The translations under genes were made by a program, and so were the position numbers. A DNA stretch of 64,000 nt from an uncultured virus (IMG/VR IMGVR_UViG_3300010158_000053) (taxonomy: Duplodnaviria > Heunggongvirae > Uroviricota > Caudoviricetes). Positions 2,694-63,989 of this stretch are shown here, in pieces. The stretch is from IMG/VR virus record IMGVR_UViG_3300010158_000053, positions 1 to 64,000 of that record. One strand, given 5' to 3'. How positions within the stretch are numbered: position 1 is the stretch's first letter; each line of letters begins with the position of its first letter. The notes below the pieces were generated by a model, which was given only the letters and a program-made list of their open reading frames with translations, had not been told where the DNA came from and did no database searches.

Positions 2694-3071
2694 TTATGCC
2701 CCTATCTTATAATGTTTGCCACTGGTGATATCTTCTCGATAGTGGTCGTATAATCGTTCACACATTTCTTTCATTAGTTCTTTGTCAAAGTTATTTTCAA
2801 AATGTCCAGGTAATTTTTTTTGATGATAAAATTCTTTGCAGCCTTTTTCAACCATTGGCATAAATTCTTTGGTCATTTCTTCTTTGTCCAAAGTTTTATT
2901 TTTATGTGATTTATGAATCTTTGTTGCAATTGGGTGGAAGAAATCCTTATGCAATTTATCGTGGTCAATAATAAACCAGAATAGGTCATTATTCATATTA
3001 TTGTCGTCCTTGTTTTTTGCCATCGTTTTGTTGATGTCAACACCCTTGCCAAAGAATTCTCTTAAAAACAT
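2694..3071 (-). CDS. Hypothetical phage protein
   Basis: 125 aa ORF, AAGGA RBS, TAAATA motif upstream. Confidence 0.7.
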   Translation of the reverse strand: MFLREFFGKGVDINKTMAKNKDDNNMNNDLFWFIIDHDKLHKDFFHPIATKIHKSHKNKTLDKEEMTKEFMPMVEKGCKEFYHQKKLPGHFENNFDKELMKEMCERLYDHYREDITSGKHYKIGA

Positions 3072-3153
3072 ACTGGTTCCTTATTTCAATCGCAACTATA
3101 TATTACGATAGATATCCTATCGTGTATTTATTCAACTTTAACCAAATAGTTAA

Positions 3154-3576
3154 TTAGTGATTATATAGAACGGATTGAACTGTACCGGCGTCTAATTCAA
3201 CGCGGCTTCTAACCCAGACAAAGTTGCCGTAGAAATTAAAAACGCTTACTGTAGAGGTATTTTGCTCCATTGCTTGGTAACTAGTCATACTAAAACTAGT
3301 GCCATCAACTGGGAACCAATCAGTATCTTGTGGAGCTGTGGCAAGAGTAGCTTGCATAGTGACCGTGCCAACAAATGTGTTATTGCAAGTATATTGTACG
3401 GTGTGTAAACCTACACTGGAACCATAGTATCCATCACCTTTTTCTTTTTGGCTAATGAATACTAGGGTATTTGTACCACTATTGGGGTATACAACAGCTA
3501 CGCTACTGGTACTGTTATATATGGGAAATTCTAAGCCGATACTGAGTGCTGACATACTTGTTCCTGATCTAGACAA
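3154..3576 (-). CDS. Hypothetical beta-rich protein (possible virion protein); start may be the Met at 3555
   Basis: 140 aa, Ser/Thr/Val-rich; TAAATA motif just upstream. Confidence 0.6.
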   Translation of the reverse strand: MSRSGTSMSALSIGLEFPIYNSTSSVAVVYPNSGTNTLVFISQKEKGDGYYGSSVGLHTVQYTCNNTFVGTVTMQATLATAPQDTDWFPVDGTSFSMTSYQAMEQNTSTVSVFNFYGNFVWVRSRVELDAGTVQSVLYNH

Positions 3577-50832: not shown

Positions 50833-51378
50833 TTAGTGATGCCCTTTGATTTGGCCTTTTAGGGCCTGTGCAACAGCATCATCCATCGAGATCGCAATCA
50901 TACCAGTTGCATCCATACCTACATCAAGGACTCTGTAGTGCTCGATTCCACTAACACCTCCATGAAGATGACCGTGTAAGTGAACAGAGCCACGATGTTG
51001 TTGATCAAATTCCTGAATTGGATAATGAAACATACATACAACAGTGCCATCATAGACCAATCGCAGGTATTGGTGTACTTCCTTAAAACACTTGCGGAAT
51101 GTGGGATCGTTCAGTGTCTTACGGTCGTGATTACCTTCAACTAAGATCTTAGTGCCGTTACAGCGGTTCATAAATTCTGCTGCCTTTTGAGCAGGCAAGA
51201 ATGCCACATCACCCAATATGTACACTGTATCTTCAGGAGCAATCAGGTCGTTCCATTCCTTGACCATTTGCTCGTTCATATAGTCTACGTCATTACGAAA
51301 CCTTGCCCGCGATACAGGACAAAAGGACATAATGTTCTTATGTCCAAAATGTAAATCACTTGTTACCCAAGTATTCAT
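50833..51378 (-). CDS. Calcineurin-like metallophosphoesterase
   Basis: SDLHFGH, LGD, GNHD, HYP, HGHLH, DVGMD. Confidence 0.88.
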   Translation of the reverse strand: MNTWVTSDLHFGHKNIMSFCPVSRARFRNDVDYMNEQMVKEWNDLIAPEDTVYILGDVAFLPAQKAAEFMNRCNGTKILVEGNHDRKTLNDPTFRKCFKEVHQYLRLVYDGTVVCMFHYPIQEFDQQHRGSVHLHGHLHGGVSGIEHYRVLDVGMDATGMIAISMDDAVAQALKGQIKGHH

Positions 51379-52397
51379 TATTCACCACTCTTTAATAAAA
51401 ATTTGTTAGAAATTGCCTTGAAGCTCACAGACTTTTCGTTACACTTGAACACCAGTCCTTCACGCTCTTGCTTGGGATTCAATTCTGAATTACCTTCAGC
51501 GTACTTCAACAGATTTTCAATAGTTTCGCCGCCGCCCAAACGATCATTAGAGATCAAAATAGGGCAGTGATTCAACTTGTGTTCAGTTACAAACGCCACT
51601 CGTTCAGCAGGAGTGTAGTAACGACCTGCATCAATGTCATAAATGTCGTAAACATAAAAGTCTTGATCACGCATTTGGTACTTGTTACCTTGAATGCCGT
51701 TTCCAATCAGTTCACCTTGGACTGCAATGTTACCACCTGCAATCTTCAACTTTTCTTCTAAGTCGTGCCGGATAGCGGCACGCCACAATGAATTATCAAC
51801 ATTACGCTTGAGGTCAAGGTTGCGTGAGCAAACACCAACTTCACCATCAATAACATAAACAGTCATTGAAGACCCATCGAGTTTCTCTGTAATTTCCCAA
51901 GATAGATTTTCAGTCTTCCACTCCGCCAACTCTGCTGACAAGTTTTGAATACGCTCTTGGTCAGTCTTCGGAATCACTGAAGGGAACATACCTTTGACTT
52001 CACCTGCAAGTTCTGCGGGGATGGGTGCTTCATACTTGGTGATGCCAAGCAGTTCAGAAACATCCATACCTTCGTAAATCTCACCAACCTTGTCTAGAAC
52101 AGTGTATCGGTCCAATAGAAGGCCCTGTGACAGTTGACCACGCAACTTTACAGTACGCAGACGTTCACCCTTGACTTCATTGAAAACACGTGGAAAGTTT
52201 CCTTTTGATAGAAATGGTGCAATGTTATGTGGAATCCAAGAATCAATTTCGCAGTACACAGCCAGATCACCAGCAGTGTATTCACCCTTCTTTACCACGC
52301 AGGTCCATCCACCTACGATAGCGCATTCAATTGCATCAGCGCCTTCAATAGGACGCAGTGCATCAATCTTACGGATAGTTGCCATTTTACGAGTCAT
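51378..52397 (-). CDS. RNA ligase, DRB0094/Rnl2-superfamily with N-terminal OB domain
   Basis: PIEGADAIE, RGQLSQGL, KTDQERIQN, EKLDGSS, QGEL, EGLVFK, FKAISN. Confidence 0.85.
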   Translation of the reverse strand: MTRKMATIRKIDALRPIEGADAIECAIVGGWTCVVKKGEYTAGDLAVYCEIDSWIPHNIAPFLSKGNFPRVFNEVKGERLRTVKLRGQLSQGLLLDRYTVLDKVGEIYEGMDVSELLGITKYEAPIPAELAGEVKGMFPSVIPKTDQERIQNLSAELAEWKTENLSWEITEKLDGSSMTVYVIDGEVGVCSRNLDLKRNVDNSLWRAAIRHDLEEKLKIAGGNIAVQGELIGNGIQGNKYQMRDQDFYVYDIYDIDAGRYYTPAERVAFVTEHKLNHCPILISNDRLGGGETIENLLKYAEGNSELNPKQEREGLVFKCNEKSVSFKAISNKFLLKSGE

Positions 52398-60220: not shown

Positions 60221-61615
60221 TTACTTCATACTATTTGCTCGAACTTCGTCAAAGGTAATTTCTTTGATCAGTCGACCATCACGGTAAACTTCTCCCAATG
60301 CTTCAGTCCATACAGTGCCCCGATCTGTCCAACCTTTTGGTTGTTCAACACTGGTTTGGAATTCACCACCGCTGGTCCACAAAGTTACACGACCTTTCTT
60401 GGACGCTTTGACCTTGTCAGTAACGGGGTCTTTGAACACATCAACCCATTCACCTTTAATCAGTGCCGCGCTACATTTCATCGCAAACTTTTGTGTATCA
60501 CGATCCAATTGCTGTAGCAATGCACCACCCATACCAAAAGCAATGTTGTCTGCACTCCAGCCACCAAAGTCAACAATCTTTGTAAGAATACTGCGAATGC
60601 TCAACTGGTTGATACCGTCACCCCAAAGTACACGAACATTGTTCAGTACTTTGTAGCCTTTGGCGTTTGTGGTATATCCAAATGTTTCGCCTAGGATTTG
60701 AAACATCTTTGGCAGTACTTCAACAGGATCGCCACTGTCAGGACGAATAACGACAGTAGCACCGCTGTCAATTACCTGTTGTTTCAACTCAGTGCCCCAC
60801 AAGCGGCAGGCTTGGTAAATGTCGTAACTGTCCGACACCACTGCCAACAATGCACCAGGCTTGCCAAATTGTTGAACCATATTGCTATAGGCTTTTACTT
60901 CGTCTGGACGACCCCAACTTGTGACAGTGCTGTGCTCTGCGGCAGGGATACTAAATCCAGCGATTTCAGCGCCGTAATACTCACGAGCATACAAAATGCC
61001 AGTGATAGTATCAGTGCCCATGAAGTTGACAAGGTGGGCGGCTCCGCCGATGCCAGCGGATTCCATGCTGCTAACGCCACGAGCACCAAAATCATGGAGC
61101 TTAAAACTAATAGATGTAGGATCACCAGATTTCTCCAAATAGTCTGTAATAATGTTTTTGATGTACTTACTTTGCGTTGACACAGTAGTACCGTACCAAA
61201 TAGCACGAAGCAAAGCAGTTTCCAACCAAGTAGTCAACCAGAAACATTTAGGATCGGTGTTTTCAATTGTCGCAAGTACGTTTGAGACTGGAACAACAGT
61301 GCCTTCGGGTACCGCTCTGATAACAACTGGCAAATATCCGTTGTGAGCGGTAAGAATGTACTCCCATCCTTCCCTGTTAAAGGGCTCGCCGTGAGCGGTG
61401 AGGATTTCGTCAGCGATGTCGATGTCAGCCTGGGTAATTGGGCTGAGTAGGTATTCCTTGATAAAAGCCTGTAGTCCGAAGAATACAGTTCTATCATAAC
61501 GGCCGCCTCGTGACTCAATGTACGAATATACATTGGTGGTTCCTAGTGGGTATTGTTTGAACATTGACACTTTATAACTGTCTGTGTTCAGGATAAGATT
61601 TTTAGATAATTTCAT
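60221..61615 (-). CDS. nadV: Nicotinamide phosphoribosyltransferase
   Basis: TDSYK, LHDFGARG, PAAEHS, VSDSYD, IRPDSGDP, FGMGGALLQ. Confidence 0.92.
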   Translation of the reverse strand: MKLSKNLILNTDSYKVSMFKQYPLGTTNVYSYIESRGGRYDRTVFFGLQAFIKEYLLSPITQADIDIADEILTAHGEPFNREGWEYILTAHNGYLPVVIRAVPEGTVVPVSNVLATIENTDPKCFWLTTWLETALLRAIWYGTTVSTQSKYIKNIITDYLEKSGDPTSISFKLHDFGARGVSSMESAGIGGAAHLVNFMGTDTITGILYAREYYGAEIAGFSIPAAEHSTVTSWGRPDEVKAYSNMVQQFGKPGALLAVVSDSYDIYQACRLWGTELKQQVIDSGATVVIRPDSGDPVEVLPKMFQILGETFGYTTNAKGYKVLNNVRVLWGDGINQLSIRSILTKIVDFGGWSADNIAFGMGGALLQQLDRDTQKFAMKCSAALIKGEWVDVFKDPVTDKVKASKKGRVTLWTSGGEFQTSVEQPKGWTDRGTVWTEALGEVYRDGRLIKEITFDEVRANSMK

Positions 61616-61656
61616 TTTAAAGTTCCTTTAAAGTTAAAAGCATTCGCGTCTATCGC

Positions 61657-62676
61657 TTATGCACCTACAAAATGCTGTAGGATTTCGTAATGGTCTTCAA
61701 AGCATTGATCCGACCGGACCTCTGCAATAGGCACCCATCTAGCCTTTTCTGCATCATCACTACCTTTGACTTTTGGAAGTTCGCCATCAGGTAGAACAAT
61801 GTGGAAAGCGTGTGTAATTATACGACCTCGTGGACTACGGTCAATTGCATCAAATACTCTGCTACGAACAATACTACCTTTAAGTACTGGAGCAGGAACC
61901 TTGATCTGTGTTTCTTCACGTAGTTCACGCAACATAGCGGCCTCAACACTTTTGTCTGTATTAGCATTGACATAACCGCCAGGCAGTGCCCAAAGGCCGC
62001 GACCTGGTTCAGCACGGCGTTTGATCATTAGTACGTGACCACTGCAAATGACCACAGCGTCGGCAGTACTAAAGATTGGAGGATACTTCAATCCAGCATA
62101 TTGCTTTTTGTGTTCAATAATGAATTCACGTTCACGGATCACTTGTTCGTACTCTGCGGTAAGTGAAAACGCCATTAAGAAATCAAAAGTACTCGGCGGT
62201 ACAACATTCTTAATAAAGTTCATATTGACATCACGTTTGAAATACAACTCGCGAATGTCAGTAGCATCAAGTGGTTCAAGCAGTTCTACTTCTTCAAAAC
62301 CCCATTGCGGGAACATATCTAAGTAAAACGAACTTGGATCTTTCTTGTGCCCAATAATACCAATGTTATCACCCGGTTTGGTATGTTTAGCAACCAATGC
62401 TTGAACACGAACTGCCCACGCTTGGTCATTGTAAATTGTATCTGGATTGGGTTCAACTTGAACCTGCAAGTCAAGTCCACTAGTTGCGTACTTGATCATT
62501 ACGCTACGTTCGTGAAAGGTAAAGGGATTCTTGTAAGTGCGTGGCTGATTAGCGCTGCCGCAAATAAAGATCAATTGTTTACATTTAGCAGTGGCTCTAT
62601 GTGCCAGCATCAAATGTGCTGTGTGAAACGGTTGAAAACGTCCGATTAGGACAAGGGTATCATATTGTTTAGACAT
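61657..62676 (-). CDS. nadM: Bifunctional NMN adenylyltransferase/Nudix hydrolase (NadM-Nudix)
   Basis: GRFQPFHTAH, KNPFT, ATDIR; Nudix box PGG...AMLRELREET. Confidence 0.92.
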   Translation of the reverse strand: MSKQYDTLVLIGRFQPFHTAHLMLAHRATAKCKQLIFICGSANQPRTYKNPFTFHERSVMIKYATSGLDLQVQVEPNPDTIYNDQAWAVRVQALVAKHTKPGDNIGIIGHKKDPSSFYLDMFPQWGFEEVELLEPLDATDIRELYFKRDVNMNFIKNVVPPSTFDFLMAFSLTAEYEQVIREREFIIEHKKQYAGLKYPPIFSTADAVVICSGHVLMIKRRAEPGRGLWALPGGYVNANTDKSVEAAMLRELREETQIKVPAPVLKGSIVRSRVFDAIDRSPRGRIITHAFHIVLPDGELPKVKGSDDAEKARWVPIAEVRSDQCFEDHYEILQHFVGA

Positions 62677-62775: not shown

Positions 62776-62910
62776 TTATACTACTATATCTTCGTAGTCT
62801 TCTTTACCTACACCACACTCTGGGCAGGTAAAATCATCTGGAAGTGTATCCCAAACGCCTTCAGTTTCCTCATCGTGAATGTGACCACAGACAATGCAAA
62901 CGTGTTCCAT
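62776..62910 (-). CDS. Rubredoxin (44 aa)
   Basis: MEHVCIVCGHIHDE...LPDDFTCPECGVGKEDY; TAATG-coupled to rubrerythrin. Confidence 0.88.
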   Translation of the reverse strand: MEHVCIVCGHIHDEETEGVWDTLPDDFTCPECGVGKEDYEDIVV

Positions 62911-63359
62911 TATAGTTTCTCCAATACAGATTGATATGCGGCGGCGTGACGTTGCTCAACTTTTTGCAATGCTGCAAAGCGTTTTTCAGCTTTGGCCAAT
63001 ACAGCAGCAAATTGTTCAGCGTGTTCTTTACTTTCTTCAATTTGGTGATTGGCTTCAAAAGCGGCTTTGGTATTGCCTTCAAGTTCTGCTGCACGTTTGA
63101 AGTCTGGATACATTGTAGTAAACTCATATGTTTCACCTTCAATGGCTTTTTCCAAACATTCTCGAGTATTTGGTTTACCAATTAGTAATTCCAAATGACC
63201 CCAAGCGTGTAGCAACTCTTGGTCAGCAGTATGCTCAAAATGTCGTGCAACATCTTCGTAACCTTCTTCCCTTGCAATCTTTGCAAAGTAACGATACTTG
63301 ATGTGTGCTTGACTCTCACCCGCCAATGCGCTTTCAAGATTTTTAATTGTAATAGACAT
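62910..63359 (-). CDS. Rubrerythrin (short chain)
   Basis: AGESQA, QELLHA, GETYE, EESKEHA diiron ligands. Confidence 0.9.
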   Translation of the reverse strand: MSITIKNLESALAGESQAHIKYRYFAKIAREEGYEDVARHFEHTADQELLHAWGHLELLIGKPNTRECLEKAIEGETYEFTTMYPDFKRAAELEGNTKAAFEANHQIEESKEHAEQFAAVLAKAEKRFAALQKVEQRHAAAYQSVLEKL

Positions 63360-63461
63360 ACAGTCTCCTTGTAAAATAATATTGTACTTTTATTTACTAT
63401 AGGAATCAACCTAAAAATAGCATTTTTCAATTGAAAATTCCTATGACTTCTATAGTCATAA

Positions 63462-63486
63462 AAATAGGCTCCGGAGAGCCTACTTT
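63462..63486 (-). terminator. Intrinsic terminator ending the tmRNA coding piece
   Basis: AGTAGGCTC-TCCG-GAGCCTATTTTT. Confidence 0.8.
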
Positions 63487-63666
63487 GAGTTTCTGTTGCG
63501 AGGTATGTCTTACCCCAGGCTGCGTTTAGGCGGCCAATGCGTAAACTGAATCGTTTGCATTTATAGGTTTTGTGTCTTCGGCCGGGAAACCCCAACCCTA
63601 ACGGCTTCTACATTGCCGGACTGTCCATTTCATTACTCTTGACCCTGTCGAAACCATGGCAGGCCC
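63487..63666 (-). ncRNA. ssrA: tmRNA coding piece (5' acceptor strand, D-loop, tag ORF ANDSVYALAA at 63526-63558)
   Basis: Begins GGGCCTGCCATGGTTTCGAC; ATAAAT-GCA resume context; tag ends YALAA-TAA. Confidence 0.9.
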
Positions 63667-63679
63667 ATCATAAGAAAAC

Positions 63680-63877
63680 TTACTTTATAAAACGAGGAAT
63701 ACGAATTTCTGTACCAGCATATTGAAATGAATCTAACATTGGAACTAATGATTCAATATCACTAGCATTGTGTCGTTCCATCATCGTATGCTCACCATCT
63801 ATCAACATAAAGTACAACTTGGTTGTACCTTCGTCAACTTGCGGCTTGAAAATATATTCTAAATCTTGTAAAATCAT
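63680..63877 (-). CDS. 65-aa hypothetical protein inside the tmRNA intervening segment
   Basis: AAGGAAG RBS directly after the CCA; ORF fills the 223-nt spacer. Confidence 0.6.
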   Translation of the reverse strand: MILQDLEYIFKPQVDEGTTKLYFMLIDGEHTMMERHNASDIESLVPMLDSFQYAGTEIRIPRFIK

Positions 63878-63889
63878 CAAACTTCCTTA

Positions 63890-63954
63890 TGGTGGACCTG
63901 GCGGGAGTCGAACCCGCGTCCAGAATCCTTTTCAATCGACTTCATACAGTCTTA
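63890..63954 (-). ncRNA. ssrA: tmRNA acceptor piece (T arm, 3' acceptor strand, CCA)
   Basis: GGACGCGGGTTCGACTCCCGCCAGGTCCACCA; CAGGTCC pairs with GGGCCTG giving G3.U70. Confidence 0.9.
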
Positions 63955-63960
63955 ACTTAC

Positions 63961-63989
63961 AGTATATATTTATTTAATATCTATGTCAA
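63961..63989 (-). promoter_or_regulatory. sigma70-type promoter of permuted tmRNA
   Basis: TTGACA-N17-TATACT, with TAAATA in the spacer. Confidence 0.8.

Follow-up and report, generated by a model that had tools for sequence, protein, structure and literature searches.

A protein gene between the two pieces of a tmRNA

We analyzed a 64,000-nt stretch of DNA (hereafter, the window) comprising bases 1–64000 of the 76,710-bp IMG/VR virus record IMGVR_UViG_3300010158_000053. Towards the end of the window lies a gene for a permuted, two-piece transfer-messenger RNA (tmRNA), and the intervening segment (IVS) between its two pieces holds an open reading frame (ORF) of 65 codons, which we call ORF65. 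All features of the locus described below are on the minus strand.

ARAGORN called the permuted tmRNA at 63982–63435, with the tag ANDSVYALAA, and the Rfam model tmRNA_permuted (RF04321) matched 63951–63526 over model positions 1–213 of 213, scoring 119.4 bits where the gathering score is 47 (E = 1e-22). The gene order is acceptor piece with an encoded CCA, IVS, and coding piece from the mature 5′ G (G1). The acceptor piece (63890–63951; RF04321 positions 1–63, and ARAGORN) consists of the 5′ pairing strand, the T-arm, which is uninterrupted in the Rfam match, the 3′ acceptor strand and the CCA at 63892–63890. The coding piece (63526–63666; ARAGORN and Rfam) opens with the 5′ acceptor strand GGGCCUG, which pairs with CAGGUCC to give the G3·U70 alanine identity pair, and its tag frame (63558–63526) ends in an ALAA-type tail and a stop codon. 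Two tmRNA models were the only Rfam matches at gathering level in the window, with no group I intron among them.

A sigma-70-type promoter, TTGACA-17 nt-TATACT (63961–63989, or 2090–2062 of L001; 11/12 matches), ends some 10 nt short of the acceptor piece. Downstream of the coding piece, a terminator-like hairpin (UAGGCUC-UCCG-GAGCCUA, then UUUUU; 63460–63482) forms in the minimum-free-energy (MFE) fold; a palindrome scan listed it only on the plus strand, and analogous hairpin-plus-T runs lie 3′ of the tmRNA in L002, L004, L011 and L012. We saw no terminator after the CCA in the minus-strand sequence of the locus. The best promoter-like site within the IVS (63880–63851) has 9/12 matches, compared to 11/12 for the site upstream of the acceptor piece, and these data lend no support to the idea that the coding piece has its own promoter.

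The IVS, which would be absent from the mature two-piece tmRNA, is an insert between RF04321 positions 86 and 87. A sequence-only reading of the locus had described a 223-nt spacer between the CCA and the mature 5′ G, and this is exact: the segment runs from 63889 to 63667, with the G at 63666. ORF65 (63680–63877; ATG at 63877, stop TAA at 63682–63680; MILQDLEY...IRIPRFIK) occupies 198 of the 223 nt and is preceded by UAAGGAAG. The same reading had placed an AAGGAAG ribosome-binding site right after the CCA; the motif is present at 63888–63882, but one U (63889) intervenes, such that the Shine-Dalgarno (SD) sequence starts 2 nt past the CCA. The first and last parts of the IVS form the two arms of a closing helix. 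The 5′ arm, UAAGGAAGUUUG (63878–63889), includes the SD, and the first three bases of the 3′ arm, UAAGUUUUCUUA (63671–63682), are the stop codon of ORF65. The 3′ arm ends 4 nt before G1, and the remaining nucleotides, the UGAU leader (63667–63670), lie opposite ACCA.

ORF65 is a real gene. In a search of 5.8 billion proteins, all 194 candidates scored E ≤ 1, giving 194 relatives, nearly all of them 64–66 amino acids long. The best 120 of the 194 had E ≤ 6.5e-16 and 55–90% identity, and almost all were 65–66 residues. When 1.84 billion cluster representatives were searched with a profile, 95 clusters (50% identity) were recovered, nearly all of stand-alone proteins of 64–75 residues. An alignment of 61 members contains 11 invariant and 16 nearly invariant columns. 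The ratio of non-synonymous to synonymous substitution rates (dN/dS), a check that the sequence-only reading had proposed, was 0.06–0.28 against the window-type copy for the nine closest comparisons with unsaturated dS, and 0.13 between two nested copies.

The AlphaFold2 model of ORF65 (pLDDT 94.8) consists of a helix, two strands, a helix and two strands, which points to a small α/β phage protein. We found no match for it in Pfam, PHROGs or NCBIfam. Foldseek against the PDB gave 0 hits at E ≤ 0.001 (best, BofC, E = 0.07), and a wide VIA-align search gave a best Z of 3.8, for BofC and ubiquitin-like β-grasp entries. The top BFVD matches were uncharacterised phage proteins with TM-scores of ∼0.7. 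DUF7294 (PF23966) arose as a lead in an Atlas feature search (0.76), and 0 of the 61 ORF65 members matched it at E ≤ 10 in a scan of a Pfam copy that may lack this model. Neither SmpB nor SspB was among the listed Foldseek and VIA-align hits, although absence from that listing does not exclude such a fold. Hence the proposal that the protein is a trans-translation accessory finds little support here. Against isolated phages, tblastn with ORF65 gave a single row (E = 5), and blastn with the locus matched only a tRNA-like part of ∼70 nt, in 23 records and at coverage of at most 12%.

A closing helix and a cargo slot throughout the lineage

To place the window in context we used two motif scans of IMG/VR, which gave at least 240 loci of this tmRNA lineage. 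Of these, 209 match the profiles of both pieces and 204 could be assigned an IVS, yielding 158 unique IVSs of 4–382 nt. In the 60 nt preceding the acceptor piece, 53 of the 158 unique relatives have a promoter with at least 10/12 matches, and in 32 of those 53 the –10 hexamer ends 10 nt before the start of the acceptor profile.

In every IVS, the first 10–12 nt are complementary to the last 10–12 nt before the UGAU or UAAU leader. In the window, 63889–63878 pairs with 63682–63671 over 12 pairs, four of them G·U. Beyond this helix ACCA faces UGAU, with three of four positions able to pair, and together with the acceptor stem this gives a helix of ∼23 bp. The 142 unique IVSs that reach 50 nt have 90 different 5′ arms between them, and their closing helix averages 11.07 of 12 pairs, compared to 8.98 for mismatched partners. 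ORF-bearing IVSs and the others are alike in this respect (11.14 and 11.02). In a MAFFT alignment of 107 IVSs of 53–101 nt, 93.8% of cells pair, versus 83.3% in shuffles (0/500 reach the observed value), and pairing falls to 31–48% when the partners are slid. Ten of 17 helix pairs change on both sides, the U·G identity pair is kept in 107/107 relatives, and the leader (columns 160–163) is nearly invariant as TGAT or TAAT. The ends of the IVS thus covary as a helix, which argues that both tmRNA pieces and the ORF lie on one RNA. This covariation across the ORF is the strongest argument here for a single precursor.

The helix also bears on translation. For a 506-nt precursor, the MFE and centroid folds both form the acceptor stem and the SD helix; the fold (–152.3 kcal/mol, z = –4.33) is more stable than any of 100 shuffles. 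AAGGAAG has a predicted probability of being unpaired of 0.03 in the precursor and of 0.06 once the IVS is excised; for the AUG the value is 0.96. These predictions argue that the SD is sequestered in the precursor RNA. At its other end, the helix shares sequence with the cargo, as the 3′ arm often encodes the last cargo residues (...VSL*) and the stop.

We scored an IVS as ORF-filled if an ORF beginning with ATG started in its first 30 nt and covered at least 75% of it, with shuffled IVSs as the control. The filled fraction was 0/14 for IVSs under 50 nt (shuffled rate 0.11), 6/57 for 50–79 nt (0.11), 23/53 for 80–109 nt (0.086), 10/14 for 110–159 nt (0.046) and 17/18 for 160–400 nt (0.005). 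The near-filling of the spacer by ORF65 is therefore above chance. In the 56 ORF-bearing IVSs, the ATG lies 10–14 nt past the CCA in 48. The cargo stop is the UGA of the UGAU leader, ending 1 nt before G1, in 30 of the 56; in 11 others it ends 12–14 nt before G1, the position seen in the window. An SD-like motif occurs within the first 12 nt in 41/56 ORF-bearing IVSs versus 8/86 others.

A scan of metagenomes for the CCA/SD junction motif yielded at least 64 loci with a coding piece downstream and at least 44 distinct ORF proteins, including at least three ORF65 loci (L345, L378 and an identical second locus). Pooling all sources gave at least 76 distinct nested ORFs of 30 or more codons, which fall into at least 42 unrelated families. 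Related permuted phage tmRNAs thus carry swapped ORFs, an outcome on which the sequence-only reading had asked for a check, and its alternative of cargo inserted at the CCA end fits these unrelated ORFs in the same slot. On this comparison, the single nested ORF of the window is one example of a slot for cargo that is widespread. One cargo (L288) is a bona fide thioredoxin (PF00085, 75.4 bits against a cut-off of 23.5), another (L133) is DUF6356, and that of L332 matches phrog_13558. For 13 of 20 scanned cargo proteins there was no match in Pfam or PHROGs at E ≤ 0.01, and a further set gave no match in NCBIfam. Ratios of non-synonymous to synonymous differences (pN/pS) among nested copies were 0.18 for a 122-residue family (10 pairs), 0.23 for a 64-residue family, 0.23 for ORF65, and 0.32 and 0.46 for others. 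The 122-residue family is nested in 15/16 loci, implying that the frame is kept intact while nested.

Several further features of the IVSs deserve mention. Many of 82–96 nt carry hydrophobic ORFs of 22–26 codons behind the SD arm, such as MDNEYSALVGFIVVIVVFALVLL, each with one hydrophobic stretch (L130, L227, L244, L252, L258, L275, L280, L283 and others); their products may be small membrane peptides. Other ORFs bypass the leader UGA and read past G1 into the tRNA-like domain (L104, L162, L217, L232, L239, L241 and L318, with an IVS of 101 nt, as well as L145 and L182). One such run-through family has a CxxC...HKC pattern, and the run-through frames have pN/pS of 0.6–0.7. A T-arm-like hairpin (stem-GGTTCGAnTCC-stem) occurs in 10 of the 142 unique IVSs of at least 50 nt (L097, L108, L128, L156, L159, L261, L277, L292, L294 and L297), and ARAGORN found no whole tRNA within any of the 142. 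In L002 (2528–2988), ARAGORN also called a ‘standard’ tmRNA with the tag VDTAPGSHHWLLAA, re-using the same acceptor 3′ end; this call is probably false, there being no separate Rfam match at that place.

In ∼185,000 species genomes, the lineage motif was found in two records only, both contigs of metagenome-assembled genomes (MAGs), which argues that the tmRNA lineage is virus-borne rather than a host tmRNA. These contigs (L457 and L458) carry the labels Brocadiaceae (2.5 kb) and Haliscomenobacter (183 kb), and in both cases a phage contig was probably binned together with bacterial sequence.

Cassette exchange, ORF65 homologues and genomic surroundings

The loci are mosaic. L002 and L003 have unrelated flanking genes, outer tmRNA parts that are 70–83% identical and only ∼40% identity beyond the tmRNA, and yet they are 100% identical over ∼2971–3210, from the end of the T-arm through ORF65 into the first bases of the coding piece. 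L004 has identical junctions, a 92% identical ORF65 protein and a much-changed coding piece. Conversely, L102 (342-nt IVS, 101-residue ORF) and L108 (76-nt IVS, without a long ORF) have coding pieces that are 98.1% identical over 158 nt, and near-identical coding pieces with different IVSs were also seen for L227 versus L293 and L124 versus L167. Such pairs with the same backbone and different cargo occur at 95–99% identity over 127–171 nt; at ≥97% identity over ≥165 nt, there were none among the lineage loci. The 122-residue cargo occurs with at least three T-arm variants and at least four coding-piece starts. Shared cargo in diverged backbones, together with differing cargo in near-identical backbones, indicates cassette exchange. 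The exchanged unit is thus bounded by the invariant GGTCCACCA plus the 5′ arm on one side, and by the 3′ arm plus UGAU-GGGCCUG on the other.

Unrelated cargo proteins also share termini. Those of L102, L117, L148, L165, L362 and L440 start with MRI(N/K)E(I/L) or MKISEL, as does a 199-residue ORF upstream of the L153 tmRNA, and many cargos end in VSL, encoded by the 3′ arm. These termini may mark recombination joints.

ORF65 homologues are mostly free-standing. We examined the best 80 of 92 viral loci that encode one, scoring proximity to tmRNA (within 1.5 kb) with nhmmer profiles of both pieces. Only 5 of the 80 had a tmRNA within this distance, three with the gene nested and two with it directly upstream of a whole tmRNA; ARAGORN alone found four of the five, missing the tmRNA of L011/L026. 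The nested copies are those of L002, L003 and L004 (the same places as L016, L017 and L018), and L003 comes from the phage of the window itself or from a close twin. In the upstream arrangement, seen in L011 (= L026) and L012 (= L027), ORF65 lies 5′ of the complete tmRNA. In L012, a promoter (TTGACA-17-TATAAT) lies between the two. In L011, the ORF65 homologue and ∼130 nt of leader form a ∼330-nt insertion relative to L183, where the same upstream gene abuts the same tmRNA. Free-standing copies lie in tight operons with ATGA stop-start overlaps, and one family of small unknown genes, without functional hint, accounts for 43 of their 152 flanking ORFs. On one 19,282-bp phage contig, two diverged ORF65-family copies (L065 and L084) lie ∼3.6 kb apart.

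A tree built from 58 distinct proteins places the copies associated with a tmRNA, the nested ones and the two upstream ones alike, in three separate, well-supported clades among the free-standing ones: nested L016 and L018 form one (99/91), L027 groups with free-standing L020, L023 and L024 (99/95), and L026 groups with free-standing L028, L034, L037, L038 and L044 (98/89). It follows that ORF65 and the tmRNA were juxtaposed repeatedly, by a hotspot or by selection. As 75 of the 80 homologue loci have no nearby tmRNA, a further observation in keeping with the cargo alternative of the sequence-only reading, ORF65 would seem to be cargo and not a fixed partner of the tmRNA.

The surroundings are those of a large phage. 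CheckV put the record at 19% completeness, which marks it as a fragment of such a genome. Directly downstream of the tmRNA, on the minus strand, lie a rubrerythrin gene (62910–63359) and genes for salvage of nicotinamide adenine dinucleotide, encoding NAMPT (nicotinamide phosphoribosyltransferase) and an NMNAT-Nudix fusion (60221–62676). Genes for AAA ATPases are also found near the tmRNA on this strand, and one for an RNA ligase lies at 51378–52397, also minus. Beyond the window, in the remaining 12.7 kb of the record (64001–76710), ARAGORN found 23 tRNA genes, all minus, one of them with an odd anticodon loop; the tmRNA thus closes a large phage tRNA array. A gene for a 251-residue S-adenosylmethionine-dependent methyltransferase (64008–64763 of G000, equivalent to 2109–2864 of L001; minus) lies between tRNA-Met and the tmRNA promoter, and several Pfam methyltransferase models exceed their cut-offs. 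Just outside the window is also a GOLLD RNA (RF02032; 65824–66288, minus, equivalent to 1824–2288 of L456; 201.8 bits, gathering score 150) that encloses a tRNA-Lys (2153–2225 of L456) and lies ∼1.9 kb upstream of the tmRNA. We did not find SmpB in the 76.7-kb record, which says little because the record is so incomplete.

Interpretation and relation to known systems

We consider it likely, with a probability of roughly 0.7, that the IVS of the two-piece tmRNA in this phage lineage serves as an expression slot for a swappable passenger gene, carried on one precursor. Transcription from one promoter would yield an RNA containing, in order, the acceptor piece, CCA, SD, ORF65, its stop, UGAU, the coding piece and the terminator. 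The closing helix would stack on the acceptor stem, join both tmRNA halves and mask the SD. Maturation of tRNA and tmRNA involves RNase P at the 5′ end and 3′ trimming to the CCA. Here, RNase P would cut 5′ of G1, trimming would proceed back to the encoded CCA, and the long helix, a candidate RNase III site, might be cut double-strandedly. Processing would free the two tmRNA pieces and the ORF-bearing IVS, and ORF65 could be translated from the precursor, from the released IVS, with its ends still paired, or from both. Recombination within the conserved arms would exchange cargo between tmRNA alleles.

A ribosome that starts at 63877 or stops at 63680 would cover the acceptor strands, so tRNA-like folding and translation should exclude each other on any one molecule. 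It is plausible that ORF65 expression is coupled to tmRNA maturation, as the sequence-only reading proposed, and the idea is strengthened because the SD lies in the covarying closing helix. Tentatively, and at somewhat less than even odds, the slot may be an integrase-free counterpart of an integron, in which tmRNA maturation and cargo translation gate each other and the freed mRNA, ending at its stop, could itself be a tmRNA substrate. In the common form of the IVS, the UGA stop of the cargo lies one base before the presumed RNase P site.

RNA data were also considered. Twenty-four RNA runs matched the locus, each with a share of the query of at most 0.15 and all as Logan assembled contigs. 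The best contig (X4 record 21; 250 nt, 90% identical) covers ORF65 and extends just 14 and 12 nt into the tmRNA pieces, overhangs that fall under the tool's 31-nt bridging rule; moreover, RNA libraries can hold DNA. A 175-nt contig (X1) also covers the ORF with short overhangs. Four runs contain the tRNA-like parts of many relatives, with joints that skip 192–262 nt, as fits relatives with shorter IVSs.

Several observations weigh against the expression-slot interpretation. The RNA contigs prove no transcript, RNA end or expression level, and a promoter of at least 10/12 was recovered upstream of the acceptor piece in only a third of relatives (53/158). There is a promoter-like site at the start of ORF65, though a weak one (9/12). 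By itself the 12-bp closing arm contributes just –4.7 kcal/mol, and the SD may therefore be masked to little effect. Some tiny nested frames, or frames running through G1 into the tmRNA, have pN/pS of 0.6–0.9, and hence not every nested frame need be a gene. Finally, the three-clade association of ORF65 with the tmRNA could reflect a functional link, in which case ORF65 would not be pure cargo.

This last point is the basis for supposing that ORF65 is a dedicated tmRNA partner, i.e. an accessory in trans-translation or tag handling that is nested for joint production. ORF65 does touch tmRNAs of this lineage in three arrangements, each of which belongs to a well-supported clade of its own. However, the large majority of homologue loci (75/80) have no tmRNA within 1.5 kb, at least 42 unrelated families occupy the same slot, and neither the family databases (Pfam, PHROGs and NCBIfam) nor the listed fold hits (best PDB Z 3.8; no SmpB or SspB) hint at such a role. 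Since the tmRNA ends a 23-tRNA array, gene shuffling in this region could explain the repeated adjacency, and we regard a dedicated partner as unlikely. A different possibility is that the frame is conserved and yet untranslated in place, the IVS being a silent site where captured genes land or are left to decay. The predicted pairing of the SD (probability unpaired, 0.03) and the elevated pN/pS (0.6–0.9) of several small nested families are in line with this, and there is a precedent in Coxiella, where the IVS-encoded S23p is apparently not made, according to the abstract of PMC4990558. Nested copies of the larger families are, however, under purifying selection (0.13 and 0.23 for ORF65, 0.18 over 10 pairs for the 122-residue family, 0.23 for the 64-residue family). 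SD-like arms are enriched in ORF-bearing IVSs (41/56 versus 8/86), the ATG is held 10–14 nt past the CCA in 48/56, and the 122-residue family is nested in all but one of its 16 loci. Such silence is thus improbable in our view.

One can also suppose that the tmRNA pieces are transcribed separately, ORF65 being an ordinary gene between two RNA genes. In principle a two-piece tmRNA needs no single precursor, and besides the site at 63880–63851 of the window a 10/12 site occurs in 4 of the 29 unique IVSs that are 110 nt or longer; but none of these long IVSs has a site of 11/12 or better. The covariation of the IVS ends, seen in both the set of 107 and that of 142, makes sense only within one RNA. 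The lack of a terminator after the CCA and the tight spacing, with the SD 2 nt past the CCA and the 3′ arm with the stop ending 4 nt before G1, speak for continuity as well, making separate transcription very unlikely.

Under the expression-slot interpretation, the IVS of two-piece tmRNAs, hitherto treated as short non-coding scrap, would be a recurrent home for protein genes of at least 42 families. A ribosome-binding site built into an RNA-processing helix would offer a natural system in which maturation and translation compete on one transcript, and the invariant tRNA-like ends, as recombination arms, would be a new route of phage gene shuffling. The slot also points to small, probably highly expressed phage proteins worth attention, including the many putative membrane peptides of 22–26 residues. 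Annotation pipelines that call the tmRNA hide the nested genes or split the tmRNA.

Two-piece tmRNAs in aquatic phages were already known, and ARAGORN suggested a two-piece structure for 53 of 133 unique phage tmRNAs, as reported in PMC9004378. Like other permuted tmRNAs (Alpha- and Betaproteobacteria, Cyanobacteria, aquatic phages; RF04321, RF01849-51), that of the window has the same gene order, the G3·U70 pair and a tag ending in ALAA. Unlike them, it has an IVS of 223 nt that codes for protein, with cargo swapped across the lineage. The IVS contents noted in the accessible part of a 2025 tmRNA database paper (PMC11915505) are a tRNA-Ala, which the paper calls unique, and, in the longest gene, a repetitive element. 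In the full-text literature, older subscription papers and the supplements of PMC11915505 aside, we found no report of a protein gene in the IVS of a permuted tmRNA.

RNase III excises the IVSs of 23S rRNA at their closing stem. The ORF-bearing IVS in Coxiella burnetii 23S rRNA is the nearest parallel: an ORF-bearing segment is removed from a structural RNA and the mature pieces are held by base pairing. That IVS is described, in the abstract of PMC4990558, as a selfish element with one ORF family (S23p), and the results there suggest that S23p is not made. We considered whether ORF65 is itself an S23p-type protein and rejected this; the host RNA is a tmRNA, and ORF65 matches no Pfam family. 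The lineage of the window differs further in its at least 42 unrelated families, the larger of them under purifying selection, and in their shared SD. Group I introns in the tmRNA T-loop likewise place a protein gene inside a removed part of a tmRNA gene, and the intron forms are the only ones noted with homing-endonuclease genes in the accessible part of PMC11915505. ORF65, however, lies between the permuted halves rather than in the T-loop, and it matches no endonuclease family.

There are also parallels in how the passenger is expressed and exchanged. In tRNA-mRNA co-transcripts, phage ‘morons’ and integron-like cassette sites, a neighbour's promoter expresses the passenger and unrelated cassettes share one site; in the co-transcripts, tRNA-processing enzymes separate the passenger from the stable RNA. 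The tmRNA slot is unlike integrons in that it involves no integrase or attC-like site. It is also unlike all of these systems in that the sequences on its two sides are parts of a single RNA machine and have to pair with each other across the gene, with the SD and the stop region themselves closing the slot.

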